A stretch of DNA of 64,000 nucleotides. It comes from a virus. Lineage: Duplodnaviria > Caudoviricetes. The stretch is from IMG/VR virus record IMGVR_UViG_3300028797_000167, positions 1,596 through 65,595 of that record; one strand, written 5' to 3'. The stretch's first letter is position 1. Each line of letters starts with the position of its first letter. The position numbers and the translations under genes are program-made. Below are positions 1 through 64,000 of the stretch, piece after piece. Below the pieces are notes generated by a model. The model had not been told where the DNA came from. It saw only the letters and a program-made list of their open reading frames with translations, and searched no databases.

Positions 1-1472
1 TGAGCCGTTCTCCATTCTGCTTCACCGTTAGAATCGACTGTAAGAACTTTACCTTCATCAGCAGATGTAGAGGGAGGAAGACTTATAGGAGCAGGTTCCC
101 AAGAGAAAGACCCTTCGCCACCGCTATAAGAAGCAGTTAGAACCTTTTCATCATCAGTAGATTCAACTTCTGGTACATTTCGAATCACAGGCTTATTCTT
201 AATATAATCAACAGCGGAAGAATCAGTCTGCGCATAGTCAGATTGAACCTGCGGATCAGGAATAGTCGGCTTATCAGTTAAAGAATTATAAGAACCGCTT
301 GTAGCAACTGGTGCCAGATTAGGTTTATTCTTAATATAAGCCGGATCTTCACTATTCATTTCATCCCAGTCAGCTTGTGTCTGTTCTGGTACACTTAAGT
401 CAAATACCTTTACACCATTAACCGTTGAAGTATGAATCGTTACACTATTATCTTCAGATGTTACATCTATACCAGAGCCTATGATCTTATTAAGATTATA
501 AATTTGAATATAATCTAGATATACATGGCAACCCGGAAGGACTTCATTTGCATCAGTAAGCAAAGATAAAAGGGTATCTTCATTTTCTTCACTAGAATTA
601 ACGGTCAAATAAGCGAGTTCATATACTTCTTCGTGATGATAAGAGTTATTAAATTCTATGGTCTTATGAGGAATACCTAAAGAATTTACACCAGTGATAT
701 TGAATCTATAAATATTTGCATCTATAGCATTTGCATTATTATCGATTCTAACGAAGGCATGTACAATATATGTACCCGGTTTAATCATGATTTGATTATT
801 ATCGTTTACATAAATTCTATCGCCTTTATATTGAACCGTTAAAGCATTGGTATTTAAATCAGAACCAGATGCAACACTAAAGCCTTTACCAGTCCAATAG
901 TCAATATCCATTCCGGCATCAGGATCGAGCGAAATTATATTTCCATCGATATTAATTCCGTATCCACCTTCATATGGTTCAGGAGCATTAACGGAAATTC
1001 CAAGGATAACGGAACCATCGCTTAAGTATTGCTTAACACGGACGTTTACATTTTCAGTTTCGCCTACGGCACCTCTTACAAGTCCGTTAATAACCGCTGG
1101 TACATTCACTCCAAGCGGATTAGATTCCGTGCTTGCACCCTTAAGCGTATTGTCTATATTAAGCATCATAACCCCGGAGCCACCACCTCCAGCAGTGACA
1201 TTATCCCAAGTGCCAACTAATGCACCAGTAGAATCATAAAGCTCAATATAGTAAGCGAGAGTATTATCTAAAGCGAAAGTACAACGACCAGCTTCATCAA
1301 GAATAATATTAGTCGGATTCTTTACTTCAGAACCCGGATAAGTAAAGGTCTGAACCGGGTAAGAATGGTCAGACGCAAGGAAAGTTTTTATAGTACCATT
1401 AGCTAACGGTTTTCCGTAATTATCGCTAAATTGTAAATAAAAGCTAGAAGGATAGCTTTGTTCTAGAGCCAT
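1..1472 (-). CDS. Tail fibre/tailspike protein with N-terminal head-binding-type domain, runs off the left edge (not in ORF track)
   Basis: ATG at 1472 with AGGAG RBS; MALEQSYPSSFYLQFSDNYGKPLANGTIKTF...NPTNIILDEAGRCTF is homologous to 33972-35573; contains the QADW..YIKNKP fibre motif. Confidence 0.85.
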   Translation of the reverse strand, partial: MALEQSYPSSFYLQFSDNYGKPLANGTIKTFLASDHSYPVQTFTYPGSEVKNPTNIILDEAGRCTFALDNTLAYYIELYDSTGALVGTWDNVTAGGGGSGVMMLNIDNTLKGASTESNPLGVNVPAVINGLVRGAVGETENVNVRVKQYLSDGSVILGISVNAPEPYEGGYGINIDGNIISLDPDAGMDIDYWTGKGFSVASGSDLNTNALTVQYKGDRIYVNDNNQIMIKPGTYIVHAFVRIDNNANAIDANIYRFNITGVNSLGIPHKTIEFNNSYHHEEVYELAYLTVNSSEENEDTLLSLLTDANEVLPGCHVYLDYIQIYNLNKIIGSGIDVTSEDNSVTIHTSTVNGVKVFDLSVPEQTQADWDEMNSEDPAYIKNKPNLAPVATSGSYNSLTDKPTIPDPQVQSDYAQTDSSAVDYIKNKPVIRNVPEVESTDDEKVLTASYSGGEGSFSWEPAPISLPPSTSADEGKVLTVDSNGEAEWRTA

Positions 1473-1487
1473 ATTATGTCTCCTATT

Positions 1488-1545
1488 AAATATTGTACAA
1501 TGGGAAGTTGAATATATCCTTATACCCTATGAAGGTATAAGGATA
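1488..1545 (-). promoter_or_regulatory. A-type hairpin + late-promoter-like cassette
   Basis: aaatattgtacaatgggaagttgaa followed by inverted repeat tatccttatacc-N7-ggtataaggata, between a stop codon and the next RBS. Confidence 0.75.
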
Positions 1546-1551
1546 ATATAT

Positions 1552-4143
1552 TTACTTATCAAAGACACGGCTTACTCTTAAACTAATTCTGCCGTATCTA
1601 ATGGTTGTAGTACATCTTTCGCAACCGCCTAACGGAGCTGCTCCGCTATCAGGAATATTCCACCATGCGTGTTCTCTGAACATAACCCTAAAGCCATAGT
1701 TGCCATGACTGCCGTCATAATCTGGATTATCAGTTAATGGATAATCATAGATCCTAGATGCATCAGCAGCAGAAATTTTATTCAAAGTCTGCTCACCAAG
1801 GTAATCACCAATTTTCCATGACCAACATCCTTCATTAACGGCTATGCTTGCTTCTAAGGTTGCAAATGCAGTGGCATGAGGTTCAAGATTATGTAGATAG
1901 AATATCTTACCAGTATAATCGAAATCTTCTGTAAACTTACTTGTAAAGAACTGGAAGTTCTTATTGAAGTCACCGTTTTCGATTGAACCTACATACATGA
2001 TTTTTGCGCCAAGACTATGTAGATAATCCACACTATCTTGAAGTGTAAAGCCACTGCGGTTCATTACTGAGTAATACATTTGAGGATATTCTGCAGTGTA
2101 ATATTCATAATGATCTTCAGGGCATCCACCATGATTATCTTGGTACTTATACTGTGCAATTAATCTATTAGTAGGTATAGTATAATTCAACCAGAATGCA
2201 TCGCTAATAAAATCATGGTTAGAAATATTTCCAACCCATTGCGACTTAACAACTGGTACAATTCCTGTTTGCTGGCTAGTCAGATATACTAATCCATTAG
2301 TTCCAAATACATTCTTAAAGAATTTATTTTCATAGAATCTTAGGATTGTTGCATCTGTCGAAGCATCATCTAATGTATAAATAACCGCTTCAATCTTACA
2401 ATCTTCAAATGTAGCTATATTATTTACTGTAATATTTTGCATGATGGTGCAGTTATTAAATGTTTCTATAGCTCCACTTCCGGCTGCTATAAAGTTCATA
2501 TTCACCGTTACTTCGGATAAATATAAGCCGTTATAGATATTAAAGTCGGATGCAGTGGTCGGGAGTAAAGCTCCTCGTTGCATTTGTAAAGAACTAATAC
2601 CAACACCAATAATGCTAATATAACTATCAACTGCGTTAATTGTACTACCAGAATTTAGGTTAGATATAGTTCCACTAAAATTATGAAGCTCTATATTTAC
2701 ATTTAAGCTATGGCAATCAATAGTACCAGACCCATTCTCGATTACATATACATCATTTACATCAGCTGAATCCCTTAGAAGCGTGATATTTATAACGCCT
2801 TCATCTAATGAACCTATGACATGATTATCCTGAACGATTTTTAAGTCAGCATATTTTTGTGCGCCCCAATCATAAAGGTCATATTTAATATTAGGACCAA
2901 GTGTAAGGTTATATAGGTCGTGAGTAGAATTAAACATCCACGGATAAATAATCGAATCACCAGTGAATGTAGCTCTGCCCTTAAAATTACCCATTGCCTT
3001 TTCAAATTTACAATCGGTAAAAGTACTTCCATTGCTTTCTACTGCTACATTAAACCTTACAATACAATTAGTCGCATTAAGAATCATCTGCGGATCTTCG
3101 ATTTCGATAATCAAATCATTAGCAGATACATTATGCATATATCTATGGTCAAGGATTACTGTTTTCCAGTAGCCATAAGATCCATCAAATACAGTCGGTC
3201 CTGCATTATAGAACCACTTGCTATGAATTACATCTTGTTTAATTACAAGAGCTACACCTTCTGAATTAAGAGTAGTCGTACCAGTATATGTAATGCCCTT
3301 ATTAAATATTACTTTAGCACTATCAGAGCTTACCGTGAATTGTAAGGATTCACTACATACAACATGCTTACCAAATTTAATATTTGCACCACGGACTAAA
3401 GGATATGTACCACCTTGGAAATAGATTTCATTAGCCTTTCCATATCCAGCTTGTGAATATACACTTAATCCATTAAGTCTAGACATCAATACACCAGGAT
3501 CAGTATAAGGACTGATACCAAATGTAGTCGATTCCATTATACTAGATTCTAATAGAATCCATCTTCCACTATTACTAAGGCTAGATATAATTGTAGCACC
3601 GTAGTCTTCATCCCTAGAAGAGTTAGGTTCCCAAATATACGTTCTAGGAGTAATATTCCTTATATTCTCATCGTAATCAATTACGGTTACGAGAGGGTGT
3701 TTAGAATAATCAGTGGAGCGTAATTCAGAAATATACTGAACCACGAAAATATTTTCACCAGTAATTTCTGCTTCATCTACAGTACCAGAATCTATTACAA
3801 ATTCTTTTACAAATTGCCAGTGAGATACGGTTCCAGTATGATTAGGGTCATAACCTTCATGCAAATATAATCCCATATCTGCATAATTTGTACCAAGAAA
3901 TTTTTCAAGTACGACTCTATATAAGCCGTTCTTAAGAAATACTTGGTGTTCTGGTCGTCCTGCCATATCCGTAAGCAACGGATTTGACAATAACGTTTGA
4001 TAATTCTGGTCAGCATAGATTGGCTTATAAGTCGTGCCATCTGCTTCGAAGAATATTAGTCGTCCTATGACAACTTTTCCGTTTTCATCTAGGAAAGTCG
4101 GAAGAGCATCATATAAGGTATAACAAGACAAATCTGTTCTCAT
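1552..4143 (-). CDS. Tailspike-like protein (head-binding-type N-terminus, beta-rich body)
   Basis: LPTFLDENGKVVIGRLIFFEADGTT...NPLLTDMAGRP N-terminal motif typical of podovirus tail proteins; homologue at 35647-38307. Confidence 0.7.
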   Translation of the reverse strand: MRTDLSCYTLYDALPTFLDENGKVVIGRLIFFEADGTTYKPIYADQNYQTLLSNPLLTDMAGRPEHQVFLKNGLYRVVLEKFLGTNYADMGLYLHEGYDPNHTGTVSHWQFVKEFVIDSGTVDEAEITGENIFVVQYISELRSTDYSKHPLVTVIDYDENIRNITPRTYIWEPNSSRDEDYGATIISSLSNSGRWILLESSIMESTTFGISPYTDPGVLMSRLNGLSVYSQAGYGKANEIYFQGGTYPLVRGANIKFGKHVVCSESLQFTVSSDSAKVIFNKGITYTGTTTLNSEGVALVIKQDVIHSKWFYNAGPTVFDGSYGYWKTVILDHRYMHNVSANDLIIEIEDPQMILNATNCIVRFNVAVESNGSTFTDCKFEKAMGNFKGRATFTGDSIIYPWMFNSTHDLYNLTLGPNIKYDLYDWGAQKYADLKIVQDNHVIGSLDEGVINITLLRDSADVNDVYVIENGSGTIDCHSLNVNIELHNFSGTISNLNSGSTINAVDSYISIIGVGISSLQMQRGALLPTTASDFNIYNGLYLSEVTVNMNFIAAGSGAIETFNNCTIMQNITVNNIATFEDCKIEAVIYTLDDASTDATILRFYENKFFKNVFGTNGLVYLTSQQTGIVPVVKSQWVGNISNHDFISDAFWLNYTIPTNRLIAQYKYQDNHGGCPEDHYEYYTAEYPQMYYSVMNRSGFTLQDSVDYLHSLGAKIMYVGSIENGDFNKNFQFFTSKFTEDFDYTGKIFYLHNLEPHATAFATLEASIAVNEGCWSWKIGDYLGEQTLNKISAADASRIYDYPLTDNPDYDGSHGNYGFRVMFREHAWWNIPDSGAAPLGGCERCTTTIRYGRISLRVSRVFDK

Positions 4144-4159
4144 GATAAGATCCTTATAT

Positions 4160-4218
4160 AAATATTGTACAATGGGAAGTTGAAGATATCCTTATACCGT
4201 ATGAAGGTATAAGGATAT
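4160..4218 (-). promoter_or_regulatory. A-type hairpin + motif cassette
   Basis: aaatattgtacaatgggaagttgaa plus atatccttatacc-N7-ggtataaggatat. Confidence 0.75.
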
Positions 4219-4227
4219 TCTTATATT

Positions 4228-7197
4228 TTATTTCTTTTCTTTAGTATCATCAGATTTTCTTTCCTTGGCATCATCAGGAATTGTATACCTAAGATTAAAT
4301 TCAGGTACATAATTTCCACGCTTCTTTGAGCCATAATTAAACTTATAAGGAATTATCCCAGGTACTTTTTTAGTAATTGCACTCCAGTTAGCCGGATTAG
4401 ATCTTATAATATCTTCTCTGGTTTCCTTTTCAGGTTCAGATAAGGCATTAAGCTGTGTTCCATATCCAGCTCCAACTAAAGTACCGGGCTTAATCATTCT
4501 TGATTCGAATAATCTTCCAATCGGATAAAATGGAAATAGCACCTTATTTATTCCTTTATGTGGTCCTTTATAATCTTCTTTTCTAAATAAATCAACCTTT
4601 CCTTCATTATTCTTTAAAGATCGAATTATCTTTTCTATATCTTCTTTTTTAGATTCAGCTTGTTTAGCCTTATCGGAAATATTTCTCTTACGAATTTCAG
4701 ATTTAAGCACATCAGATTCTTTAGGAATATTATGCTCATTTAAGAAATTATCGAAGGCTTCTTTAACTTGCTTAATTTTCGCTCTGTCACCAGATGAAAT
4801 ATTTGCAGAGATTGCACTATTACTCGGAACTTCTAGGTCACCATAATATGCAAGGGCAGTTGACCATTCTTCAGGAGTAATTGCATCCATTTCAGGAGAA
4901 GTATTATTTAAGATTCTTTTGCCAGTATTATATTCATGAATAGATCTTGCTAAATCGTTAAGCATATCATCAGGGTTAACTCTATGTCCTATAGCTGCAA
5001 GTGTAGGATTAGGTCTTGGTTTATTACCTTCATTTAAAAAACCTTTATCCTGTAAGAAGGTTTTCATATCCTTACCAGCATTTAAATATCCCGGAATAGT
5101 CGTGCCTCTTGGATTGTAATCCCATTCTTTATTAAACCTTTTTGCATTTTTAGTTGCATTAAGTTTAGATAAGAATTCTTGCGCAAGTCTATTATTAGAC
5201 GTTCTATCTCCACTACTAGTGTTCCATGATATATATTCATCAATTAGACTTTTAAGGGTATTTCCGTCAAGCTCTCCGTTTCTATGAAGATCATAAGCTC
5301 TTTGAACAAGCTTATCACTTTCATCTACAACTGCTCTTGCAAAATTTAACGGATTATCATTATAATTAGATCTAATAAACTTTTGAAGATTTTCAGGAAG
5401 TTGCGACATTATTTCTTTAGTCTTCTCATATTGAGCATTAGTGCCGCTTCCCTTTTGTGCGCCCTTACCAGCTTTATCATAGCCCATACTTTTAAATATA
5501 GACTGCGATAAAGTCATAGGATGATTATTATCCCTAAATGGATATAAAGGCTTATCAGCAATCATTTGTAGAGTTGTTGGCGGTTCATTGCTTGCCATAT
5601 AATCCCAATATTCAGGATTATTCCATTCAACTTCAGCAGGACCACTCGTACCAGTAAGTTCTCTTGCCTTTTCTATTGTAGGATTATAACCGCCTTCATC
5701 TTTAGTAGGAATTAACCATTTACCGTCATCAGATAAAATATTACCACTTTCTGCGTTATATTTCTTTAAGGCTTTATTTCTACCTAATTCTGCTTCAGCT
5801 GCATTGGCCTGTTCATCTATAGCAGTTTTATTCTTCCAAATTTGACGAGGGAAGATTACATATTTATCACCTTCTCTTGTAGGATCAAAAGCATCTGCAT
5901 CTACATTAGATAATTTACCACCCTGAATAGCTTCATTAATCTTATTTGTATATGCTTCATCGTTAGATTTAATTCTCGGATAAGCGTTATCATTAGGATA
6001 GAAAGGCTTTTCAAGATTGTCAATTTTTTCTTGTGCGTAGTTTTCCGCATTCTTATATGCATTAACTGCATTAGTTGCAGATTTAAGTTCGGATTGAGCT
6101 TTAGTTAATGGATGCGGATTTTTTGTAAGTTTTCTAACTGCATTAGAAATTACACCCGGTATAAAGCTTGTAGCTCCACCAAGTCCTGCTGCGGTTCCAC
6201 TAGCCGTTCCTGCATCATATAAATAATCGCCAATAAGATAATTAAACGGGTTAGTCTCGCCTCTCTCACCTTTTGCAATGGAATTACCAAGACCAATTAA
6301 ACCACCACCAGTGCCTAATGTTCCTAAAGTTCTAAGAAGACTTGCACCAGTTTTAAGGCCACCCATAACAGGATAAGCTGCTGCATTTATAGTTCCACCA
6401 GCAATATTTCTAATATTTAACCCTGTTTCATCAGGACCAATTTCACCCTGTTGACGAGCTATTGCTCCTTGGGATAAATATGGAATACTAAATGTAATAC
6501 CAAGATTATCTAAAACTCGTTCCTTAGTATTTTCCGGGCTATAATAATATTCTTTATTGATAAGATAATTTAAAGCATTAGCTCTTTCATTCGCACTATT
6601 TTTATTTCTAAAATTTTCCGGAGTGCGCATTAAATAACTATTCTTTTTAGCTTGAGCATCAAGCTTTTTAGGTATGCTATATGCATCACCAGCTAGAGTA
6701 AAGTTTGTTTCACCAGCTCTATATAGTGGTTCATTTTGAAGCCACTTAGTAAATTCTTCATCAGTAAGGTTTCCAACACCCATAGTCTCTTTAAATTTCT
6801 GGGTATCTAAAGCCTTTTGAGTCATTGTAGAAAGCCATTTACCTCTATCATAAAGGTCGTCTATAGCTTGTTTTCTAAGCATTAGATGATCAGTCAAAGG
6901 TCTTTCATCAAATTTTAGATCGACCTGAGTACCAGCAGAATTATAAGGATTTATAAGAGTACTTCCACCATGTTGTGTAGTATACTTAAAAGCCCCGTTA
7001 AGAATATTTTTCCAATTATCGCTATGTAAACCGTCGGAAATCATTCGGGTTTGATCTAATACATTTGCTTCTCCAAAAGATTTCTTTTCTTTATCTGATA
7101 GGCCATCATAATATGATCTCCATAAAGCTTCATATGGAAATGATTTCGCAGTTTTTTGCGCTTGCGGCAATACACTGATATCTATTTCTTCAGCCAT
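4228..7197 (-). CDS. Large putative DNA ejection/internal virion protein (P22 gp16-like position)
   Basis: ~990 aa with Gly/Ala-rich hydrophobic segments, last of the ejection cluster; start trimmed to MAEEID after GGAG; counterpart at 38383-41274. Confidence 0.55.
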   Translation of the reverse strand: MAEEIDISVLPQAQKTAKSFPYEALWRSYYDGLSDKEKKSFGEANVLDQTRMISDGLHSDNWKNILNGAFKYTTQHGGSTLINPYNSAGTQVDLKFDERPLTDHLMLRKQAIDDLYDRGKWLSTMTQKALDTQKFKETMGVGNLTDEEFTKWLQNEPLYRAGETNFTLAGDAYSIPKKLDAQAKKNSYLMRTPENFRNKNSANERANALNYLINKEYYYSPENTKERVLDNLGITFSIPYLSQGAIARQQGEIGPDETGLNIRNIAGGTINAAAYPVMGGLKTGASLLRTLGTLGTGGGLIGLGNSIAKGERGETNPFNYLIGDYLYDAGTASGTAAGLGGATSFIPGVISNAVRKLTKNPHPLTKAQSELKSATNAVNAYKNAENYAQEKIDNLEKPFYPNDNAYPRIKSNDEAYTNKINEAIQGGKLSNVDADAFDPTREGDKYVIFPRQIWKNKTAIDEQANAAEAELGRNKALKKYNAESGNILSDDGKWLIPTKDEGGYNPTIEKARELTGTSGPAEVEWNNPEYWDYMASNEPPTTLQMIADKPLYPFRDNNHPMTLSQSIFKSMGYDKAGKGAQKGSGTNAQYEKTKEIMSQLPENLQKFIRSNYNDNPLNFARAVVDESDKLVQRAYDLHRNGELDGNTLKSLIDEYISWNTSSGDRTSNNRLAQEFLSKLNATKNAKRFNKEWDYNPRGTTIPGYLNAGKDMKTFLQDKGFLNEGNKPRPNPTLAAIGHRVNPDDMLNDLARSIHEYNTGKRILNNTSPEMDAITPEEWSTALAYYGDLEVPSNSAISANISSGDRAKIKQVKEAFDNFLNEHNIPKESDVLKSEIRKRNISDKAKQAESKKEDIEKIIRSLKNNEGKVDLFRKEDYKGPHKGINKVLFPFYPIGRLFESRMIKPGTLVGAGYGTQLNALSEPEKETREDIIRSNPANWSAITKKVPGIIPYKFNYGSKKRGNYVPEFNLRYTIPDDAKERKSDDTKEKK

Positions 7198-7213
7198 AAT
7201 ATTCTCCATATAT

Positions 7214-7266
7214 TATTGTACAATGGGAAGTTGAATATCCTTATACCGTGTAAGGGTATAAGGATA
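7214..7266 (-). promoter_or_regulatory. A-type hairpin + motif cassette
   Basis: tattgtacaatgggaagttgaa plus tatccttatacc-N7-ggtataaggata. Confidence 0.75.
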
Positions 7267-7272
7267 ATTCTA

Positions 7273-9465
7273 TTAAGAATAATACACCTGCATTAGAAGA
7301 TCTTGTATCTTTTTATTATCTTCATCTGCATTATATGAAAGCTTACCACCATTTACAATCGTTTGATACAAATTCTTAAGAATAGAATATCTAGGATAAT
7401 TTTCTAGAGCTTGACCAAAGCCAGTTCTTGCATTAGGTGATAGATTATTTAATACTGCTTTTAATACCTTTTCATCAGCATTATTTAATCTTTGAAGGAA
7501 TCTTTGAATTTCCTTTTCAGATAATTGCAGCGAATAATCTTTTCTTGTATCAGCAGCAGAACCTTCAACACGTTCTTGGTTATGCAGTTTAATACTAGTA
7601 GCTTTCACACCTTTTTCGGTATAATTGGAAAGCATAGCATTAGCTATATCTTTATAGTAATTTAGCTTTTGATCTTCAGTAAGATTGTTATTATCTACAA
7701 TTGAATCCCAAGTAGCCTTAATAAGTTTAATACCACCTGGTTTTCCATTACCTTTATTTTCTTTAGCTTCTATACCTTCAGGATTTGCAATTATATCTTT
7801 ATCGGCATTTACGTTATTAACATCACCAGAAGTATTTCCACCCTGCGTATCCGTAAGATTAGAACCTCTACCGTTATTTACAACTTCGTTAAACTGCCTT
7901 AAAGTATCAGCATCCATCCATTCAGGAATCTTATACTTTCCGCCAAGTGTAGATGCAGTATATAAACGGTCATCAGCAATTTTATTCTTATAATCAGCTT
8001 GTGATTTAAGCTTTGCAGACTCGTTCATAGCACGATCATACTCCGCTATGCCAGCTTCAATATTCCTTAAAGCTTCATTAAAGACAGGACGCATAGGTGC
8101 AAATATCTTACTTTCATATTTTCTAATATAATCTAAAGCTTGTCTAAGGTTAGTATTAGTAAGCTTATTAGCCATATTATTAAATATAGCTGCTTCTTCT
8201 TTGGAAAGACCCATATCAACTCCGACTCTTTCAAAGAAGGATCGTGCGTTAGTAAGGGCTTTATCCATAGCTACGTCACCATTTTCATGAACCTTTTCGG
8301 CTTCAAGTGATAGAGCGGCAGCTTCTTGGTTAAGCATAGTTGCGGATTGAACGAGAGAATTTTCAAAGTTCAATACTTGTCCGTGCATATTTACTGCATT
8401 AGACTTCTGTGCAGTAAGATCTGATGCAGCAGACTTTGCAGCTTCAAGCTGTCTATTGCGAAGCAGTTCAAGATTATTAGCAGCATCCATAAGGTTCTTA
8501 TCGCCCTGTTCACGCCATGCTTTAGCTTGGTTCATCCACAATTCAGGATTAGATGTAAACGGAGCTACTGTAGTTAGAGCTAGCTGTTTATCATATCCAG
8601 CTTTACCACGTTTAAGAAGAGCTTGAATTTCAGGAAGTTGCATTAATTCAGGATCTCTATCTGCTATAGCCTTTAAAGCAGTATTGACTTCAGGCCATGC
8701 CATATTCTTCCATTCATTTTCAGGAGATTCAGGAACTTCAGGCTTAGAGAAGATATTCGTCTTATACTTGTCGATAGTCTGATCCTTACGAGGATTTTCT
8801 CCACCGTGAAATTCAGGTTCAGCTTTAGCCTGATAAGCTACTACTCCAGAAGGATTAATAGGCTTTCCATGAACATCACGAGCCGAAGCGCGCTTCATAG
8901 AATCAATAGCATTAAAGGAAGAAGCCTTTGCTAGTTCTTCATCGACATCTGTTTCTTCTAAAGAAGGTTCAGGATATTTGATCTGCGGATTGACTCTATA
9001 TCCTGCCATTTCTCTAGCCGCATCTTCTGATAATCTTTTCTTATCTTCGTCGGTTAAAGGTTCTTTAGATTCTAAAGCAATAGACGGAAGTTCTTCATCC
9101 TTTGTATTTTCATCATTTCTCCACGGAAGATTTTCATATTTTCTCGGAAGATCTTTAATGAATTTACTATCAGGCTTTGAAGTATTTCTATAACGTTCAG
9201 CAAGTGCATTACGAATTTCCGGGTTATTTAATATAGCTTTATAATCTAAACCTTTGGGCAAATTATCTTCAAACGGAGTATTTTCCTTACGTGGCTTCAT
9301 TTCCGTTCTAAAATTACTGGGATCTTGAAGATTATTAAGAAGCAATAGATTCTTAATCTTTTCCTCTTGTTCCGCAAGAAGCGCATTATCATATTTAGCT
9401 TTAGAAGCAGCCTTTGCTTGGTTCATTAGCTGCTCTTGTGTATCTAAACTAATTTTAGAATTCAT
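7273..9465 (-). CDS. Putative DNA ejection protein (gp20-like position)
   Basis: Helical Ala/Gln-rich protein; shares PEVNTALKAIADRDPE...REQGDKNLMDAA with 41355-43337. Confidence 0.55.
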   Translation of the reverse strand: MNSKISLDTQEQLMNQAKAASKAKYDNALLAEQEEKIKNLLLLNNLQDPSNFRTEMKPRKENTPFEDNLPKGLDYKAILNNPEIRNALAERYRNTSKPDSKFIKDLPRKYENLPWRNDENTKDEELPSIALESKEPLTDEDKKRLSEDAAREMAGYRVNPQIKYPEPSLEETDVDEELAKASSFNAIDSMKRASARDVHGKPINPSGVVAYQAKAEPEFHGGENPRKDQTIDKYKTNIFSKPEVPESPENEWKNMAWPEVNTALKAIADRDPELMQLPEIQALLKRGKAGYDKQLALTTVAPFTSNPELWMNQAKAWREQGDKNLMDAANNLELLRNRQLEAAKSAASDLTAQKSNAVNMHGQVLNFENSLVQSATMLNQEAAALSLEAEKVHENGDVAMDKALTNARSFFERVGVDMGLSKEEAAIFNNMANKLTNTNLRQALDYIRKYESKIFAPMRPVFNEALRNIEAGIAEYDRAMNESAKLKSQADYKNKIADDRLYTASTLGGKYKIPEWMDADTLRQFNEVVNNGRGSNLTDTQGGNTSGDVNNVNADKDIIANPEGIEAKENKGNGKPGGIKLIKATWDSIVDNNNLTEDQKLNYYKDIANAMLSNYTEKGVKATSIKLHNQERVEGSAADTRKDYSLQLSEKEIQRFLQRLNNADEKVLKAVLNNLSPNARTGFGQALENYPRYSILKNLYQTIVNGGKLSYNADEDNKKIQDLLMQVYYS

Positions 9466-55539: not shown

Positions 55540-56618
55540 ATACCTCTAATTGTTATTAACACTATAGCTATAATATAAATTACATCTATAGGTATAGATA
55601 TTTTTAGTTTCATAAGCTCTCTCATTTAACTGTTAATTGGATTAAATATATACTTTCCTAATTGAAGTATAATATTCTTTAAAATAGTGTAAATAAAATT
55701 TAAATCTAATTCAATATAAAAGTTATAACTAATTATTGTCTTTATATTTTTTAATTTAAATAGGATTATTTTTACTATTAATCTTTTCAGGATGATTATT
55801 TATCCTAATTAACAATAGGATAGATGATAGAATTAAGGAATAGGATTAAGGGGATAGGGGTTTAAGGGGGAAAGTACCATTAAGGGAAAACCATTAAGGA
55901 AAGAAGATAGGAGCAAAGTGGTTATTCTATGCAATGAACCTATTATTGCAATGTGATGCATAGTACATATTCCTATATGTAAAGGCGATCTCTAGAAGAC
56001 GTCTGTAGATTTGGTTAGAAGTTCTATATGGACTTCTAACCACTTTTCATTTGGCATATATTCTAGCATTTTAACTCTTAAATGCGATGGCAAGATTATA
56101 GCATTCGGTATTTGAATCTTATCCAACTATGTTTAATCCCCAGCAGCTTCCTGATACCACTGGACACTTGCGGCTGTATGGCATTAGATTGAGGATTAGA
56201 TAATAGAATATGAGTCACTAGATCTTTGATTATATACCTGATAGATACAGGTTATAAAGCCGAGACCACGTTGAACCATTAGAACCTTCCTGGCACAGCT
56301 TAATATATAACCTGTACTTGACGATATATGATCCTAGTCCATTAAAGTTTATACCTATATAGATAGAAGCTTTCTATATAGATAGAGCATCAGCATGAGA
56401 CTCACGAAGTCGATAGGTGCTATCCCTCGTCTATATAGAACCTTTCTTGAATGTATAGGCTATAAGAATTTATGCTGATGAAGCATAATACTATATTTAT
56501 ACTTACATTTAATCTATGTCTTGTTCTTAGTGTTCTTCTTAGTAGATTAAAGAATAATATACTCTCTCATGTGAAATGATTATCCTAATGTGATAACATT
56601 AAAATGTAGAGGTATACT
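55540..56618. other. Long divergent intergenic region of unit B (AT-rich, then purine/G-tract, then hairpins); candidate origin/control region
   Basis: No ORF of 60 aa or more in the track; G-tracts at 55850-55886; hairpin ggttagaagt-N9-acttctaacc at 56013-56041. Confidence 0.55.
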
Positions 56619-57203
56619 ATGAATCGACAATTAGAAATCGAACACTGGTTTGACCAACCAAATCTTAGTCAAAACGTTATATACTCCGCTAATAGCGACT
56701 TATATAATAGGGCTATGCAGACTTCTGCAAGTGATATTGAAGCGTCTTATTACGCTCAATCGCAGAATGCTCTCTCCGATTACAGGTCTGTACTAGCCGA
56801 ACGAATCCGTATCCATATATCTTGGGATGTTAAAGCTTGTATCCCTAGATTGTCTAATATAGAAGTGTTGCCTATTCTTTCTGAATGGTATAATAGCAGT
56901 TGTCTAGGACCGTTTAAAAGGGTTAGGCACCTCTTCTCTTTTAAAACATGGGTGTTTATCATCCATAAAATGATTCCTACTTATTTGTATAAATATGCTA
57001 AGGTATTAAAGCTCCCTGAATATCCACAGGATAATATATCTAAACCGCAGTTGTTGCGTATAGTACTTGCTATATCTGATGCTATGTGTAGCATAGCTAG
57101 ACGGGCTGAAATTAGACATTCTAAACCGTTGTTAGATATAATGCAAGCATATATGCTTGGTGCATTTCCTGACCCTGAAGATAATTATTTCTTTATGGAG
57201 TAA
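56619..57203 (+). CDS. Hypothetical early protein
   Basis: GAGG RBS, 194 aa, first rightward gene. Confidence 0.7.
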   Translation: MNRQLEIEHWFDQPNLSQNVIYSANSDLYNRAMQTSASDIEASYYAQSQNALSDYRSVLAERIRIHISWDVKACIPRLSNIEVLPILSEWYNSSCLGPFKRVRHLFSFKTWVFIIHKMIPTYLYKYAKVLKLPEYPQDNISKPQLLRIVLAISDAMCSIARRAEIRHSKPLLDIMQAYMLGAFPDPEDNYFFME

Positions 57204-57206
57204 CAT

Positions 57207-57497
57207 ATGAGCCTTAAACCTGATACAATTATATACATCAATTCTAAAGGTAGAAATACCCGGAGTGGGAAATTATCCCCTGCTCAACTAAAGTTCTTTA
57301 AGCCTATGACTCAAAAGCAAAGGGGTGTATGGCTTAATAGGCTTTATAATATTGAAAACGTAAAATACTTTTCTAATATCTATGATGAAAATTTTAAAGA
57401 TCCGTGCGCTCAATCTATTGAATGTAATGGTTCTAATATAGTAGATATTATTCAAGTAATCCATGAATCTTTAAAAGAGGTATATGCAGAAGTATGA
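57207..57497 (+). CDS. Hypothetical protein
   Basis: GGAG RBS, in operon. Confidence 0.65.
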   Translation: MSLKPDTIIYINSKGRNTRSGKLSPAQLKFFKPMTQKQRGVWLNRLYNIENVKYFSNIYDENFKDPCAQSIECNGSNIVDIIQVIHESLKEVYAEV

Positions 57498-57745
57498 ACG
57501 CACAAATCAACGTAGAAACATATAGCTTTAGTGCTGCATTAGAACTTATTAAACTTGGTCGTAAGATGGCGGCAATTACTTGGAATGGAAAGAACCAGTG
57601 GGTGGCTGCACAATATCCTGATGAATTCAGCAAGATGCAGTGTCCTTATCTATATTTGCATAACGCACAAGGAAAGCTTATTCCTTGGGTACCTAGTCAG
57701 GGCGATTTGTTTAATGATTTCTGGATTGAAATTAAAGATGAATAA
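57494..57745 (+). CDS. DUF2829 / Tad2-like protein
   Basis: YSFSAALELIKLGRKMAAITWNG...PYLYL...IPWVPSQGDLFNDFW. Confidence 0.75.
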   Translation: MNAQINVETYSFSAALELIKLGRKMAAITWNGKNQWVAAQYPDEFSKMQCPYLYLHNAQGKLIPWVPSQGDLFNDFWIEIKDE

Positions 57746-58148
57746 TATACAACGAACCTTGAATTTAGAAGGTAATATATTCTATTGCTATGATGATGGT
57801 ACAGTAGAATATATTGATTCTAATGGTAAGCTATGCCGTAAGAAAGGTACTATTACTACGAAAGGCTATAGAGTAATTCAAAAGAGAATAAATGGCATAG
57901 ATAAAACATTTAGAATACATAGGCTTATAGCACTTGCTTTCCATAGTAAGCCTGATAATTATGATCAGGTAGATCATATAAATAGAATACGTGATGATAA
58001 TAGGCCTTCTAATTTAAGATGGGTTAACGCAAAAATGAATGCTGATAATAATTTAAAGGTATATCGTAGCATTAATAAATATGGCGTTAGGTACTGTGAT
58101 GACAAGAATGAATATCAACGCAGGTATAGAAAATTAAAAGCGTTTTAA
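57738..58148 (+). CDS. HNH endonuclease (HNH_3 type), unit B only
   Basis: IHRLIALAF...VDHINRIRDDNRPSNLRWV with intact H-N-N residues; start trimmed to MNNIQ. Confidence 0.85.
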   Translation: MNNIQRTLNLEGNIFYCYDDGTVEYIDSNGKLCRKKGTITTKGYRVIQKRINGIDKTFRIHRLIALAFHSKPDNYDQVDHINRIRDDNRPSNLRWVNAKMNADNNLKVYRSINKYGVRYCDDKNEYQRRYRKLKAF

Positions 58149-58164
58149 CCCTCTGGATTTTATT

Positions 58165-58434
58165 ATGCCGATTAAATGTAATCCTGAATGTAAAGCACAA
58201 TGCTGTAGGCATGTTAATTCTTTTTCATTCATGAAAGATTATGATCGTGGCGATGGTATATGTAAACATCTAGACGCAGAAAATAGATGTGCTATATATG
58301 ATCATCGACCTACGATCTGTAATACCGACCTTATGTTTGAACGCGTGTATAGCCGGTTTATGTCCCGTGATGAATATGATAAAATGAATGAAGAGAGTTG
58401 CAAAATTCTTTTTAAGGATTTTTCGCAAAATTAA
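58165..58434 (+). CDS. YkgJ-family Cys-cluster protein
   Basis: CNPECKAQCC...DRGDGICKHL...CAIYDHRPTIC. Confidence 0.85.
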   Translation: MPIKCNPECKAQCCRHVNSFSFMKDYDRGDGICKHLDAENRCAIYDHRPTICNTDLMFERVYSRFMSRDEYDKMNEESCKILFKDFSQN

Positions 58435-58481
58435 ACTAACTTACTATTGTGGACCATTTAAAATTAATGAGGTATAAATAT

Positions 58482-58748
58482 ATGGCTAACACTAATCGTA
58501 AGTATTTCGTATCTAACTCTGAAGAAGTTCCGTCTTACTGGGAACGCACTAAGAGTCGATCCCTTGCAATGATCTGCATCGATACAGGTAATAAGTCCTG
58601 GTTGAGGAATCTTCCTATCGATGTATATCTATATCTAAAGCAGTTCAGTAAACTTGAACGTGGTTTTATTTATAACAAGTGGAAAACGGAACATAACTTT
58701 AACGAGTATGTAAGATACAGATTTAAGAAAGAGAACTTTAAGTTCTAA
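58482..58748 (+). CDS. Conserved phage protein equal to the C-terminal domain of 25027-25665
   Basis: RTKSRS...IDTG...KLERGFIYNKWK.EHNFNEYVRYR; start at MANTNRK after GAGG. Confidence 0.7.
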   Translation: MANTNRKYFVSNSEEVPSYWERTKSRSLAMICIDTGNKSWLRNLPIDVYLYLKQFSKLERGFIYNKWKTEHNFNEYVRYRFKKENFKF

Positions 58749-58815
58749 TAGACAACTGCTAGACTGTCTATAAATAGACTAGCATCGAGATTCATTGTAA
58801 TCCTTTTGGTAAGTT

Positions 58816-58850
58816 AATAATCCCTATACCTTCGTGGTATAGGGATTATT
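58816..58850. terminator. Bidirectional terminator-like hairpin
   Basis: aataatccctatacc-ttcgt-ggtatagggattatt between convergent operons. Confidence 0.75.
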
Positions 58851-58889
58851 TATTAGAGATTATATCTCCGTTTGAGTGATAGGTAATAT

Positions 58890-60968
58890 TTAGTTGGTTG
58901 AGCCAACCTTACCAACTTCGATAGCAGTAAATGCAAGCTTAACTGTGCCGTTGTCGTTATAGATAACGATCTTGCAGTCAGAGCACGGGCCGATCAAGCC
59001 GATACCATTATAGATGATGGCCTTGTGGCTATTCGGATCAAATGCTGTAGACTGTGTGCCGCCAAATCTATTAGACGGAGTATAATAAGCTGTTGCGTTG
59101 TAGACAGCCTGCTTGGTAGTGACCGTATTGTCTGTTGCGACAATGGTTTCTGTACCAAGGAACCAGTACGTGCTAGACGTGCCGGAGGCTGTATAAGCAA
59201 TGGCGATTTCGTACGTTCCGCTAACATTATGGCGACAAGCAAGCATGTAAGCTCCAGCAAAGTCTGCGCCGGAGAGACGCTCGAAGCTATTACCAGCAGA
59301 TACCGGGGCGTTAAATACTCCACCCGGAAGGTTGGTCTGTATATAGTTATTCTGGTTAAGATGTAGGTTACGACCAACGCCATCAATCTGGATGCCAGTA
59401 TACTGAGACACACTAGTGTCCGTACGAGTCCACACTCCACTAGAGTTAAGCCCGTACTTGTAAGCGACGACGTAGCCTGAACCAGATCGGATGCACTCGA
59501 ACTCCATGCTTCCGTCAGGATTGTACTGAGAAAGCCTGAAGTCCTGATGGAGTGGGTTGTCTGCGGTCGGATAGACACGCAAGATAACCTCGTAGCCAGC
59601 CTGACGGTATCCATTAACCGTAGCGTAGGTGTCGCTAGTGCTTACGTAGACGATAGTCGGATCCGGATCAGTCCAAAGCGGATTGCCTTGACCATTAGGA
59701 AGATTTAGGATCTTCTTGGTGGTAGCACCCTGCGGAGCATTAGGTACAAGATATCCTACACCTACATCAGTTGAATCTATCTTAAGAGATACAGTTGTAA
59801 AGTCCTGGTCTATAGACAGTTTAGATGCCGTAGATTCAGAGGCTCCACCTTGGGTATTCTGTATCATTACCACTTCAGGGATCGTAGGCTTATTCTTAAT
59901 ATAATCATCAGCGGTTGTAGTCGTTTGATTCCAATCGCTTTGTACATTTACTTCAGCTCCAGCAGCTATGCCATCTAATTTATTCTTAAGGGTAGTGGTG
60001 AAGTTATTATCTGTATGGACATAGGATGCATCCTGCACTAAGTTAGATGGCTTATTCTTTATATAATCATCTGCACTAGTATTAGTCTGGTTCCAATCAG
60101 ATTGAACATTCACCTCTGCGCCAGCAGCGATACCATCTAATTTATTCTTAAGCGTCGTAGTAAAGTTATTATCCGTGTGTACATAAGAAGCATCTTGTAC
60201 TAGGTTTTCAGGCTTATTCTTAATATAATCATCAGCCGTAGAATCAGTTTGATTCCAGTTGCTTTGTACATTCACCTCAGCACCAGCTGCAATCCCATCT
60301 AGTTTAGATTTAAGCGTGTTGGTAAAGTTATTATCTGTATGTACATAAGAAGCGTCTTGTACCAGATTAGATGGCTTGTTCTTAATGTAATCATCAGCAG
60401 AACTATTAGTCTGGTTCCAGTCGGATTGAACGTTTACTTCTGCGCAAGCAGCGATACCATCTAATTTATTCTTAAGTGTCGTAGTAAAGTTATTATCCGT
60501 GTGTACATAAGAAGCATCCTGCACTAAATTAGAAGGCTTATTCTTAATGTAATCATCTGCGGTATTATCGCTTTGATTCCAGTCGCTCTGTACATTTACT
60601 TCTGCTCCGGCTTCAATACCTTCAAGCTTAGATTTAAGCGTGTTGGTAAAGTTATTGTCGGTATGTACATAAGAAGCATCCTGCACTAGATTGGCAGGTT
60701 TATTCTTAATATAATCCTGCTTAGTATTATCGCTTTCATTCCAGTCACTCTGTACCGGGGCTTCATAGGCGTTAGATATAGTATATACCTTTTGTCCGTT
60801 TGCACCTGTAGCTTCGCTGACATTTACGCCAGTGCCTTGTACAACTTCGGTCTTTGCGGCTAATACATCTGCACTAGATGCAGCGTCAATATTTCGTCTG
60901 GCTTGAGCCTTTTGGGTAGTGGTTAACCCTTGGTCAGTAGTCCATAGTACACTAGTATGTGTAGACAT
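58890..60968 (-). CDS. Long tail fibre with five 54-aa tandem repeats
   Basis: VQSDWNQ...DYIKNKP.NLVQDASYVHTDNNFT.TLK.KL.GI.AGAEVN x5 (162-nt period) plus a unique C-terminal tip. Confidence 0.75.
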   Translation of the reverse strand: MSTHTSVLWTTDQGLTTTQKAQARRNIDAASSADVLAAKTEVVQGTGVNVSEATGANGQKVYTISNAYEAPVQSDWNESDNTKQDYIKNKPANLVQDASYVHTDNNFTNTLKSKLEGIEAGAEVNVQSDWNQSDNTADDYIKNKPSNLVQDASYVHTDNNFTTTLKNKLDGIAACAEVNVQSDWNQTNSSADDYIKNKPSNLVQDASYVHTDNNFTNTLKSKLDGIAAGAEVNVQSNWNQTDSTADDYIKNKPENLVQDASYVHTDNNFTTTLKNKLDGIAAGAEVNVQSDWNQTNTSADDYIKNKPSNLVQDASYVHTDNNFTTTLKNKLDGIAAGAEVNVQSDWNQTTTTADDYIKNKPTIPEVVMIQNTQGGASESTASKLSIDQDFTTVSLKIDSTDVGVGYLVPNAPQGATTKKILNLPNGQGNPLWTDPDPTIVYVSTSDTYATVNGYRQAGYEVILRVYPTADNPLHQDFRLSQYNPDGSMEFECIRSGSGYVVAYKYGLNSSGVWTRTDTSVSQYTGIQIDGVGRNLHLNQNNYIQTNLPGGVFNAPVSAGNSFERLSGADFAGAYMLACRHNVSGTYEIAIAYTASGTSSTYWFLGTETIVATDNTVTTKQAVYNATAYYTPSNRFGGTQSTAFDPNSHKAIIYNGIGLIGPCSDCKIVIYNDNGTVKLAFTAIEVGKVGSTN

Positions 60969-60969
60969 A

Positions 60970-61200
60970 TTACTCCTTCATTTTAATTTCTTTAAGGTTA
61001 TACTTCAATATTAAGTCAACACTAGTTTTGATCGAAGCTAAGTCGGCTTTAATTTCAGTGATCGCTTCAGTCTTAGATTCTAGCTTATCGACTTTCTCGT
61101 TAAGCTCTTGAACTTGAAAGAATAGATAAGCCGCTAACACTGCAGCGGCTGTACCTACCTTCTTGCCTATACTATCTAATGCTCCCATAATGTCCTTCAT
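60970..61200 (-). CDS. Holin-like single-TM coiled-coil protein
   Basis: Homologue of 28345-28590. Confidence 0.45.
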   Translation of the reverse strand: MKDIMGALDSIGKKVGTAAAVLAAYLFFQVQELNEKVDKLESKTEAITEIKADLASIKTSVDLILKYNLKEIKMKE

Positions 61201-61211
61201 GTATACCTCCA

Positions 61212-62036
61212 CTATTTCCAAGAAGAAGGGATCTGCCTATATAGGCTTTGTGAATATGGATCCGGGTCTGTTACCGCACAGTTTTCAAAGCATCCATCTG
61301 TAGCAGACTGGCTGACTAAAGATAGTCCTGTATACATTGCATATGCAGTTTCACCTGTTAGATTTATACATCCCTTAAATGCATTAGTAAGATCGCAATA
61401 TCTTAAATAAGGTTTTTCATCCCAAGGATCTACTGCAATATTTATTCCTGTAAATCCACGTGGATAATTCCATGTAGACTCATCATCCCATCTAGTAAGA
61501 TCCACACCTGTAAGATTCATAAAGTTTTTCATATTTCTAACTTTAGGAACATTCAAGTATTGAAAATCTAAACTCACTGGTGTTTTATAAAACATCTCTT
61601 CCATAGACGTTACGTTAGCAAATTGTAAACCTGCTGTATAGTAAAATGCTTGTCCGTCATGTGGGGTAGGATTAATATTATAGAATAACTTATCCATATT
61701 AGTTACTTCACTTGCATTTATACTTATAACGTCTGTATATGATATATGATTAAAATGAGGATTTATTCCAAATATAGGTGAACCATTATTATTCCATACA
61801 GTATTTTCGTATGTCCATTCCCATACAGATCCAGATACATGATGCCATGTACCTTTACTCCATGAATAATCTAATGGATTAAATAGCTCGTTAGTATTTC
61901 TGTCTGTACCAAATTTGAATCTTATAGAATAAGGACTCGTAAATCGTTCGCTACTATCAGACAATTTTAAACGACTATCATTAAGCCCATAATATAATGG
62001 ACGTCCATTATAGGTTATATTTACATTCTCATCCAT
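61212..62036 (-). CDS. DUF285/BspA-like repeat protein
   Basis: Homologue of 28602-29390; shared C-terminus DPDPYSQSLYR.IPSSWK. Confidence 0.6.
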   Translation of the reverse strand: MDENVNITYNGRPLYYGLNDSRLKLSDSSERFTSPYSIRFKFGTDRNTNELFNPLDYSWSKGTWHHVSGSVWEWTYENTVWNNNGSPIFGINPHFNHISYTDVISINASEVTNMDKLFYNINPTPHDGQAFYYTAGLQFANVTSMEEMFYKTPVSLDFQYLNVPKVRNMKNFMNLTGVDLTRWDDESTWNYPRGFTGINIAVDPWDEKPYLRYCDLTNAFKGCINLTGETAYAMYTGLSLVSQSATDGCFENCAVTDPDPYSQSLYRQIPSSWK

Positions 62037-62042
62037 AAGTCC

Positions 62043-62867
62043 TCACTTTAAATCTGAAGGTATATTTGCATATGCAGTAGCATTTCCAAGATCACCACAT
62101 CTATAGCAAGCATCTGTCCAGCTGCTATGAGTTTGAAGTTGTTGCCAATATGTAGGATATACTACACCTGCATAGTTATTAGTAATATTTCTTTGATTTG
62201 TAAACATATAACTAAAATTTACTATATAACCAACTGTCTCAATATCAGGCCAAAGAATTGTAGGCACTGTAGTCAACCTATAAGGTGCGTTAGAATATCC
62301 TTGTGTATAGAATAAATGATCTAATGATCCATGGCATGTAGTACCATTATAGTACTTAACCTTTCTAAAATCTAAGGTGCTGTTAACGTACTTTACGGAG
62401 CCTACGCCTGTAGCTGCGCTGGATACAGCTGTCCTAAACATAGATGCAGCATCAGTTACATTGCTTGTATCTATCTTTTCAACGCCTTCTAGTCTATCCA
62501 TGTTATAGAATAATCCACGCATGTTAGTTACATTAGACGTTTCGCTGTCTATAATCTTGCACTTAACATTTTCTAATCGATTACTTCCATTTTTGGAAAA
62601 TATACTTCTATAATTATTATTCGTATCAGAACTTGTTAGGTTAGAAGGCAGAGTCCATATAGGATCGTTATAAGTCCAATCCCATATAGTATCAGACCGT
62701 TGAGTCCATGTTCCATAATCAAAGACATCATTCAATGGGTTATAATACTTACTGTCATCTAAGAATAAGAATCTTAAAGTATAAGGTGCTATAGAAGGCA
62801 GCGGCTCGGAAAGTACCTTGCCGCTGTTAAATAGCATATAATTATCTCTTGATATGTAATTATTCAT
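62043..62867 (-). CDS. DUF285/BspA-like repeat protein
   Basis: Homologue of 29398-30228. Confidence 0.6.
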   Translation of the reverse strand: MNNYISRDNYMLFNSGKVLSEPLPSIAPYTLRFLFLDDSKYYNPLNDVFDYGTWTQRSDTIWDWTYNDPIWTLPSNLTSSDTNNNYRSIFSKNGSNRLENVKCKIIDSETSNVTNMRGLFYNMDRLEGVEKIDTSNVTDAASMFRTAVSSAATGVGSVKYVNSTLDFRKVKYYNGTTCHGSLDHLFYTQGYSNAPYRLTTVPTILWPDIETVGYIVNFSYMFTNQRNITNNYAGVVYPTYWQQLQTHSSWTDACYRCGDLGNATAYANIPSDLK

Positions 62868-62903
62868 ATATGCTTTCCTTATTGCCAATATAGCATCTAT
62901 ATA

Positions 62904-64000
62904 TTAGGTTAAGAAACTAGTTGAGATTATTTCAAATACAATGCCTTTCTTATAGACAAATATATCCATATAACCATTAAAAGCAGTTGTAGTGCCTGTA
63001 GAGAATGTTTGGGTAGTATAACTATTTCCTACTTGTGGTATACTCATATGAGTAGTAGGAGACCATGAGGATGGATATGAATTATTAGATCCTGTTTGAA
63101 TATTTTTTGTAGTGTATAAAAAATATAACTTAGAAGTAGTAAATATACTATTTAAATTTTTATCTAATAGATAAATTGTTACACCGTTTCTATTTTGTAC
63201 AGATGGAATTTTTATTATACCATCAGAATTTAGTGCATTATCAGATAAAGAAATTCTACAGGTATGAGATGGATAACTTCCAGATATATTCCTTAAAAAG
63301 AAATTATTCGTATTCGTATTATCTATATCATAATGATGAGTAGTACCAGAACCTGTTATAGTTACACTAGTCCAATCAGAATCATATGTAGGACTAGAAC
63401 CACCACCTCCACTAGCAGTAGCCCATCCATAAGAACCTGCTCCGCCACTATATACGGCAGTGAGAACCTTTCCGTCGTCATTACTTGTTACAGTAGGCAC
63501 TCCGTCTGGTATAGTAGGCTTATTGCTTAAGTCATTATAAGACCCACTTGTAGCGACCGTGGCAAGATTAGGCTTATTAAGAATCTCGCTTACACCAGAA
63601 GAAGAGTTCCAGTCTGCATTGACTTGAGCAGCAGGAATTGTTGGTGTATTAGTAAGATCATTATAAGACCCACTTGTAGCCACCGTTGCAAGGTTAGGTT
63701 TATTCTGAATGTAGCTTACAGCCGTAGTGTCGGACTCTGTCCAGTTAGACTGAACTTGAGTGCCACCACCACCGCCACCACTTTCAGTTTCCCAGCTATA
63801 AGAACCAGTTCCACCACTATATGTAGCCTTAAGAACCTTTCCGTTATCAGAAGATGTAACCGCTGGCACACCGTCTGGTATAGTCGGAGTATTAGAAAGG
63901 TCGTTATAAGAACCAGTTGTAGCTACAGTTGCAAGATTAGGCTTATTAAGAATCTCGCTTACACCAGAAGAAGAATTCCAGTCAGCATTAACCTGCGCAG
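62904..64000 (-). CDS. Repeat-rich fibre protein, 5' end beyond right edge, with a C-terminal domain absent from its unit A counterpart
   Basis: Open frame continues past the track's 63869 start to the window edge; repeats match 31450-32415. Confidence 0.75.
   Translation of the reverse strand, partial: AQVNADWNSSSGVSEILNKPNLATVATTGSYNDLSNTPTIPDGVPAVTSSDNGKVLKATYSGGTGSYSWETESGGGGGGTQVQSNWTESDTTAVSYIQNKPNLATVATSGSYNDLTNTPTIPAAQVNADWNSSSGVSEILNKPNLATVATSGSYNDLSNKPTIPDGVPTVTSNDDGKVLTAVYSGGAGSYGWATASGGGGSSPTYDSDWTSVTITGSGTTHHYDIDNTNTNNFFLRNISGSYPSHTCRISLSDNALNSDGIIKIPSVQNRNGVTIYLLDKNLNSIFTTSKLYFLYTTKNIQTGSNNSYPSSWSPTTHMSIPQVGNSYTTQTFSTGTTTAFNGYMDIFVYKKGIVFEIISTSFLT
63874..64000 (+). repeat. Second copy of the 127-bp perfect repeat (may extend beyond the window)
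   Basis: Identical to 31916-32042. Confidence 0.95.

Follow-up and report, generated by a model that had tools for sequence, protein, structure and literature searches.

Can one phage molecule carry two complete sets of capsid genes? The question is raised by a virus record of 65,595 bp that IMG/VR annotates as 'linear' and '100% complete'. The window, the whole 64,000-nt stretch that we analysed, corresponds to record bases 1596–65595. Within it, two complete, diverged genomes of P22-like phages lie head to tail, and we refer to them as units A and B. We conclude that the record is almost certainly an artefact of short-read metagenome assembly and not a double-genome virus.

Two diverged units and their relatives

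Comparing the open reading frames of the window with each other by blastp revealed ~20 collinear, same-strand gene pairs at an offset of ~33.9 kb, with amino-acid identities of 22–77% overall. Terminase, portal, scaffold and coat are among the duplicated genes, and the pairs include proteins of 863/886 aa (47% identity), 572/580 aa (77%), 428/435 aa (59%), 645/623 aa (66%), 452/454 aa (63%) and 276/281 aa (71%). The duplication covers the whole unit, early genes included, rather than one module, and both units look intact. These results bear out the original prediction that nearly all morphogenesis genes occur twice in the same order and strand, ~32–34 kb apart, as parts of two genome units that are both complete, have diverged and are not separated by host DNA. 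A 29-aa holin-like peptide, said to be the same protein written in other codons, is indeed encoded twice on the minus strand (28465–28551 and 61081–61167) with synonymous differences. The left edge of the stretch, by contrast, is not the end of the molecule for which it had been taken: the record runs 1,595 nt further left, and these nucleotides are the first of unit A. The length of loop A, 33,460 bp, follows from the recurrence of record base 1 at position 33461.

PHROGs and Pfam searches named the principal head genes (Table 1). The unit A portal scored 131.9 bits against PF16510, for which the cut-off is 26.1, and a scaffold was also named in this unit. Neither collection matched an integrase, as anticipated for the region between the units, or a recognisable repressor or replication gene. 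Tube, sheath and tape-measure proteins had no PHROG match, and proteins of 863, 993 and 735 aa have no assignable function. Scans for tRNAs and for Rfam families were both empty.

The relatives consist of one unit each and have one terminase gene apiece, at lengths of 33,412 bp (100% complete, with terminal repeats), 33,205, 34,351 and 29,723 bp. The complete 33.4-kb genome IMGVR_UViG_3300037453_000222 (G001) matches each of the two units in a single collinear series. For all six core proteins, A is at least as close to G001 and its fellow relative G003 as to B; the A coat protein is 90% identical to that of G001 and 59% identical to that of B. Searching IMG/VR with the unit B coat protein returned distant relatives only, at 59% identity, so we found no independent B genome. 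Contigs with 580-aa homologues of the head-closure protein seemed B-like in length, yet they share only 72% nucleotide identity with B and represent other lineages. Among 50,697 deposited phage genomes, the portal had no detectable relative. The head-closure protein had none in species-representative bacterial genomes, which leaves no pointer to a host or to a prophage state.

Table 1. Features of the two units and their junction, in window coordinates.
Feature	Position	Strand	Remark
Unit A, in-window part	1..31865		full unit = record 1-33460, 33,460 bp
Unit A head-closure 'Hc3'-like protein	10977..12695	-	phrog_578 9.7e-52
Unit A major head protein	13587..14873	-	phrog_283 1.1e-9; 90% identical to G001 protein
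Unit A portal, P22-like	16022..17959	-	phrog_156 8.8e-32; PF16510 3.5e-38
Unit A terminase large subunit	18010..19368	-	phrog_2 5.7e-46; PF03237
Hybrid 321-aa ORF from the join	31450..32415	-	N-terminus: B's 489-aa repeat protein; C-terminus: A's 1160-aa fibre
High-identity patch, A-side copy	31676..31975		92% to 63634-63933
Internal copy of record's first 127 nt (graph vertex v1)	31866..31992		50 nt A-type + 77-nt core
77-nt core shared by A and B, A-to-B crossover site	31916..31992		exact match
Internal copy of record's last 127 nt (graph vertex v2)	31916..32042		core + 50 nt B-type
Unit B	31916..63873		31,958 bp = offset between both v2 copies
Unit B head-closure-like protein	44904..46646	-	77% identical to unit A protein
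Unit B major head protein	47525..48832	-	59% identical to unit A protein
Unit B portal	49987..51858	-	66% identical to unit A protein
Unit B terminase large subunit	51861..53225	-	63% identical to unit A protein
High-identity patch, B-side copy	63634..63933		92% to A-side copy
Record's terminal 127-mer	63874..64000		= 31916-32042; B-to-B closure signature

Record ends and the A/B junction

The two termini of the record have no end-to-end overlap; each is instead repeated in the interior. Record bases 1–127 equal 33461–33587, and bases 65469–65595 equal 33511–33637, both repeats being exact over 127 nt and reaching the left and right ends of the record, respectively. All these copies contain the 77-nt core, which lies at record positions 51–127, 33511–33587 and 65469–65545. 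At the internal junction, the 50 nt to the left of the core are A-type, with 8 differences from B-type, and the 50 nt to the right are B-type, with 11 differences from A-type. The left end of the record reads A/core/A and the right end B/core/B. Since each is of one type on both sides of the core, the ends show the parental A-to-A and B-to-B closures and not a B-to-A joint; the A-to-B junction alone is present in the record, and its reciprocal is absent. The 8 + 11 differences flanking the core led us to reject closure of the ends on each other. A molecule closing at ~66 kb had been proposed, but each end repeats a different 127-nt part of the internal A/B junction.

The length of these repeats equals the top k of an assembly workflow. 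JGI runs metaSPAdes with k = 33, 55, 77, 99 and 127 (doi 10.1101/2020.09.30.320929), and 127 nt is also the exact length of the terminal repeat in the complete relative G001. This signature, together with the published workflow, leads us to infer that the assembler was metaSPAdes at k = 33–127. The lengths of the parts account for every base of the record: 127 + 33,460 (loop A) + 50 (bridge) + 31,958 (loop B) = 65,595. The exact 127-nt end repeats, the value of k and the 127-nt repeat of G001 together lead us to read the record as a walk through v1, loop A, a bridge and loop B.

We are thus highly confident that the 65.6-kb record does not represent one molecule but the path that an assembler took through the separate genomes of two phages. 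Two related phages with P22-like portals, A and B, would have been present in one metagenome and each assembled as a closed loop, the two being nearly identical over ~600 nt of their fibre genes, a patch in which the 77 nt of the core match exactly. In a de Bruijn graph at k = 127, loop A would be connected to loop B by a bridge of 50 nt, whose hybrid k-mers have A-type sequence on the left flank of the core and B-type sequence on its right flank. The assembler would then have output the only non-repeating walk: v1, loop A, v1, bridge, v2, loop B, v2. The bridge holds 49 hybrid 127-mers, which may derive from lower-k contigs fed forward, chimeric library fragments or rare true recombinants. 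If they lie on real reads, the sample contained some A–B recombinant DNA.

Closure of unit A on itself is seen in a second, separate contig. Ga0265299_10030877 (L034), a 4,478-bp metagenome contig whose sample may be the record's own, runs through the final 900 nt of A and on into its initial 3,578 nt, with 0 mismatches. Circularizing the units in silico yields an intact ORF across each closure, the 1160-aa fibre in A and a 489-aa ORF in B, and each of them aligns with one uninterrupted ORF of G001. Residues 1–289 of the 489-aa ORF align unbroken with one 1041-aa G001 ORF, the closure falling at residue ~167. For the B-to-B closure, the evidence is the record's own right end and homology to G001. 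Both loops fit circular, concatemeric or circularly permuted DNA, and their loop-like assembly would be in keeping with headful packaging of permuted DNA.

An assembly chimera, named as the main alternative in the original prediction, is what the k = 127 end repeats and the A-to-A contig support. A chimera would be expected to break at a sequence exactly shared by both genomes, and the breakpoint here falls in the 77-nt core. Overlaps of length k point into the record from both ends. Each unit also exists alone, A as judged by L034 and B by the record end and homology to G001.

Alternative origins of the junction

The crossover core sits inside the sole patch of 92–94% A/B nucleotide identity, a ~600-nt stretch made up of the A-side patch and the record's left end, in a background of 66–76% (about 70%). 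At 89–94% identity there are two patches, 29969–30240 / 62608–62879 and 31676–32250 / 63634–64000 plus the record's first ~413 nt, and against a background of about 70% we take them as a mark of recent exchange. Together with the hybrid ORF, which is intact, they lend some support to a reading in which monomers dominate and the hybrid junction is nevertheless real. Minority recombinants, with one crossover at the core and a second elsewhere, would combine a B background with a fibre tip or cassette of A type, and their reads would have made the misleading bridge. It is possible that the sample held rare real A/B recombinants, but the 77-nt core has no exact match in any other IMG/VR record and occurs elsewhere in one metagenome contig only, of A/A type; across the IMG/VR and metagenome contig searches, no further contig carries the hybrid junction. 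Multi-k assembly can, moreover, probably make hybrid k-mers without reads. We consider a real hybrid junction unlikely, though it deserves some weight. Were A/core/B reads real, they might reflect sibling phages that infect the same host and exchange a cassette for the fibre tip or host range via the ~600-nt patch, perhaps with transient A–B cointegrates during co-infection, a scenario to which we likewise give a minor share of belief. If true, the record would have caught ongoing recombination between phages otherwise only about 70% identical.

A real A+B cointegrate, that is, a heterodimer circle or mixed concatemer forming a ~65-kb replicon through recombination at the fibre patch, is far less probable still. 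The record does contain an A-to-B junction with its crossover in the identical core, both units look intact and no host DNA separates them. Such a replicon should also show the reciprocal B-to-A junction, which is missing, whereas both ends display parental junctions with exact k = 127 overlaps to the interior and L034 shows A closing on itself. All relatives found are 30–34 kb with one terminase, and 65 kb would not be expected to fit into a P22-like head built for ~33 kb. The parental ends, the k = 127 overlaps and the A-to-A contig thereby count against the earlier proposals of a ~66-kb heterodimer, a persistent cointegrate or alternating headful packaging. They also weigh on the least credible reading, to which we assign almost no probability: one genome with an ancient duplication of its whole structural module, retaining both sets in one virus. 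In line with that reading, the two sets are intact and have diverged, many of the changes being synonymous, but we reject it because A is closer in six core proteins to stand-alone 33-kb genomes than to B; the doubling, besides, takes in the early genes and so exceeds one module. The concatenation of two separate genomes during assembly is the reading that we retain.

Known systems and consequences

The CheckV work (PMC8116208) described over-length contigs of concatenated genomes in IMG/VR and regarded them as probable artefacts of assembly. Like them, this record is ~2x the expected length, holds its genome content twice, comes from a short-read metagenome assembler and carries k-length end repeats. 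Those contigs repeat the same genome and have a k-mer frequency >1, whereas the copies here are different phages with about 70% nucleotide and 22–77% protein identity, too diverged for a k-mer frequency check, which would therefore miss the record. The de Bruijn signature of a circular genome, a k-nt direct terminal repeat as in G001, is likewise an exact 127-nt repeat that marks loop closure. Here there are two closures, each pairing an end with the interior and not with the other end, which accounts for the IMG/VR class 'linear'.

Both units resemble P22-like short-tailed phages in their PF16510 portal, 'Hc3' head-closure-like protein and gene order (terminase, portal, scaffold, coat). The lack of a match to a tail tube, sheath or tape-measure protein may fit a short tail. 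The units differ from P22-like phages in their portal, for which no relative was detected among 50,697 deposited phage genomes, in having no prophage relative in species-representative genomes and in showing no recognisable integrase, repressor or replication genes. Their genomes of ~33 kb are also smaller than that of P22 (~42 kb). Tandem prophages and phage cointegrates similarly place two related phage genomes head to tail; unlike those, the record has no integrase, att site or host flank, its ends are assembler k-mer overlaps and L034 shows the self-closure of unit A.

The record, now rated as one virus of 65.6 kb and 100% complete, should be split into two genomes, A (33,460 bp) and B (31,958 bp). 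Kept whole, it inflates genome-size estimates, corrupts clustering and gene-content statistics, and invites the false claim of a virus with two capsid kits. It also exposes a blind spot, as checks for repeated k-mers cannot see the concatenation of two diverged genomes; a simple catch is to look for a contig end that recurs in the interior over a length of exactly k nt. The double genome is almost certainly not a real feature. The real remainder is modest: two uncultivated phages with P22-like portals, from a lineage without a cultured relative, that have a recently exchanged fibre segment in common.

Paired genes of two phage lineages

The record is 65,595 bp long (the window being its bases 1596-65595), is classed as 'linear' in IMG/VR and has a CheckV completeness score of 100%; GC ranges from 32 to 44% along the window. 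Comparing ORFs of at least 100 aa in the window with one another by blastp revealed two series on the same strand, with ~20 collinear pairs at an offset of ~33.9 kb and 22-77% identity; the paired gene order noted in the original prediction, at ~32-34 kb, is thus correct. The left-hand genome, unit A, encodes a terminase large subunit, a P22-like portal (PF16510), a scaffold protein, a major head protein and an 'Hc3' head-closure-like protein, for each of which blastp found a homologue in the right-hand genome, unit B. A 29-aa peptide said to recur with different codons does occur twice, its amino acids unchanged and its coding sequences differing at synonymous sites. Searches of the window's sequence and proteins turned up neither an integrase or repressor nor any tRNA or Rfam family.

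IMG/VR searches with the terminase and head-closure protein returned contigs of at most 38 kb. The close relatives among them are contigs of 29.7-34.4 kb, with one terminase in each of the five examined, and the relative IMGVR_UViG_3300037453_000222 (G001) shows one collinear alignment to A and one to B. For all six core proteins, A is at least as close to G001 or another relative, G003, as to B (coat protein, 90% versus 59%). Given these single-unit relatives and the nearness of A to them, A and B belong to separate lineages within a group of ~33-kb phages. Duplication within one genome is rejected, A being no farther from these two relatives than from B.

Junctions and the apparent fusion

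We reconstructed the full record from the window and the locus spanning the record's first 1,951 bases, scanned it for exact repeats and carried out a three-way comparison of junction sequences. Record bases 33461-33587 are an exact copy of its first 127 nt, and bases 33511-33637 of its last 127 nt (65469-65595); both matches are precisely 127 nt and each touches one record end. At the internal junction, a clean hybrid, 50 nt of A type (8 differences from B type) are followed by a 77-nt core identical in both units and by 50 nt of B type (11 differences from A type). The left record end reads A/core/A and the right end B/core/B, so the record holds three junction types: both parental closures and one A-to-B hybrid. 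The scan found no overlap between the record's two ends and the junction comparison found no B-to-A joint in the record, which a heterodimer circle requires; the ~66-kb A+B circle originally proposed is therefore not borne out. In a graph with two self-loops and one connecting 50-nt edge, the record is the sole walk without repeats, and 127 + 33,460 + 50 + 31,958 = 65,595, its exact length.

An exact search with the core matched one JGI metagenome contig, Ga0265299_10030877 (4,478 bp), which consists of A's last 900 nt followed by A's first 3,578 nt with zero mismatches; against the A-to-B path of the record it shows 21 differences within the first 1,313 nt. A separate contig thus shows unit A closing on itself. 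Closure in silico leaves an ORF intact across each join (A, 1160 aa; B, 489 aa), and a single 1041-aa ORF of G001 aligns with both across the closure point.

For metagenomes, JGI's workflow uses metaSPAdes with k = 33,55,77,99,127 (doi 10.1101/2020.09.30.320929), and the terminal repeat of G001, the only complete relative (33,412 bp, 100% complete), measures exactly 127 nt; closed loops in this data source thus show as 127-nt overlaps. We infer that this assembler also produced the present record. Chimeric contigs formed via repeats, and tangled variant genomes, are well described in phage assembly graphs (PMC10104058). Concatenated genomes in IMG/VR have been described as probable assembly artefacts and are spotted by k-mer frequency (PMC8116208), a measure that copies as diverged as A and B escape.

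The doubled gene content seen in the original prediction is confirmed, but by its junctions and 127-nt end repeats the fused A+B molecule is almost certainly not genuine. The 50-nt bridge between the loops contains 49 hybrid 127-mers, for which lower-k-round contigs, chimeric library fragments and rare true recombinants are candidate sources. The last of these would entail a minority of genuine A/B recombinants in the sample, which we consider unlikely; a stable 65-kb heterodimer is very unlikely. The record should be divided into two genomes of 33,460 bp and 31,958 bp.

Other features of the units and their relatives

A stretch of ~1.1 kb in the early region of unit B contains no ORF of at least 50 aa on either strand and no Rfam or tRNA match; its left end is AT-rich, and short 'aggat' and 'taagg' words occur in clusters. 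It may be an origin, a regulatory region or an unknown RNA. The equivalent divergent-transcription point of unit A spans just ~220 nt. Upstream of minus-strand genes in unit A, the gaps between genes carry a recurrent 30-60-nt element (exact runs of 26-40 nt; two copies 97% identical over 59 nt). This is probably a promoter or terminator cassette present in several copies.

The early region of unit A holds a gene for a RhuM-family protein (PF13310, 1.6e-20), and DUF285-repeat paralogues adjoin the fibre genes in both units. In unit B, phrog_99 (6e-20) clearly marks an HNH endonuclease that lacks an equivalent at the corresponding position of A, and the first late gene of A (286 aa) matches HNH only weakly (5e-7). 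In three relatives the terminase matches are broken by in-frame TGA, which could reflect a frameshift, an error, recoding, or an intron or intein; a crude comparison of ORF lengths under codes 4 and 15 did not discriminate among these.

Coordinates of features in the window and, for terminase matches, in relatives
Feature	Coordinates	Strand	Remark
30-60-nt element, unit A	1487-1545, 4155-4217, 13490-13520, 17942-17985		
First late gene, unit A	20796-21656	-	
Divergent-transcription point, unit A	21909-22126		
RhuM-family protein, unit A	24949-25665	+	
DUF285-repeat proteins, unit A	28602-29390, 29398-30228	-	
Extra 400-aa gene, unit A	30243-31445		
ORF-free stretch, unit B	55540-56620		
HNH endonuclease, unit B	57555-58148	+	
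DUF285-repeat proteins, unit B	61212-62036, 62043-62888		
Further A/B patch	29969-30240 / 62608-62879		
Closure-region patch	31676-32250 / 63634-64000		
G001 terminase match	G001:C1:3537-4873 (loci L022/L027)		one TGA, at frame break
G002 terminase match	G002:C1:24849-26185 (loci L023/L026)		one TGA, at frame break
G003 terminase match	G003:C1:12428-13705 (locus L021)		two in-frame TGA

Fibre patches around the crossover site

Conserved genes of A and B share 66-76% nucleotide identity, and outside the patches the two phages are about 70% identical. The closure region, where the A-to-B join fell, includes ~600 nt over which A and B are 92-94% identical, among them uninterrupted matches of 127, 98, 88 and 58 nt, within repeat-rich fibre genes bearing a recurrent '...DYIKNKP...' unit. 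A further patch reaches 89% identity, and the extra gene of A lies in the region flanked by the two patches. The patches suggest that the two phages have recently swapped fibre segments, and what was exchanged looks like a fibre or host-range cassette. Such an exchange would be the only real biology underlying the apparent fusion.
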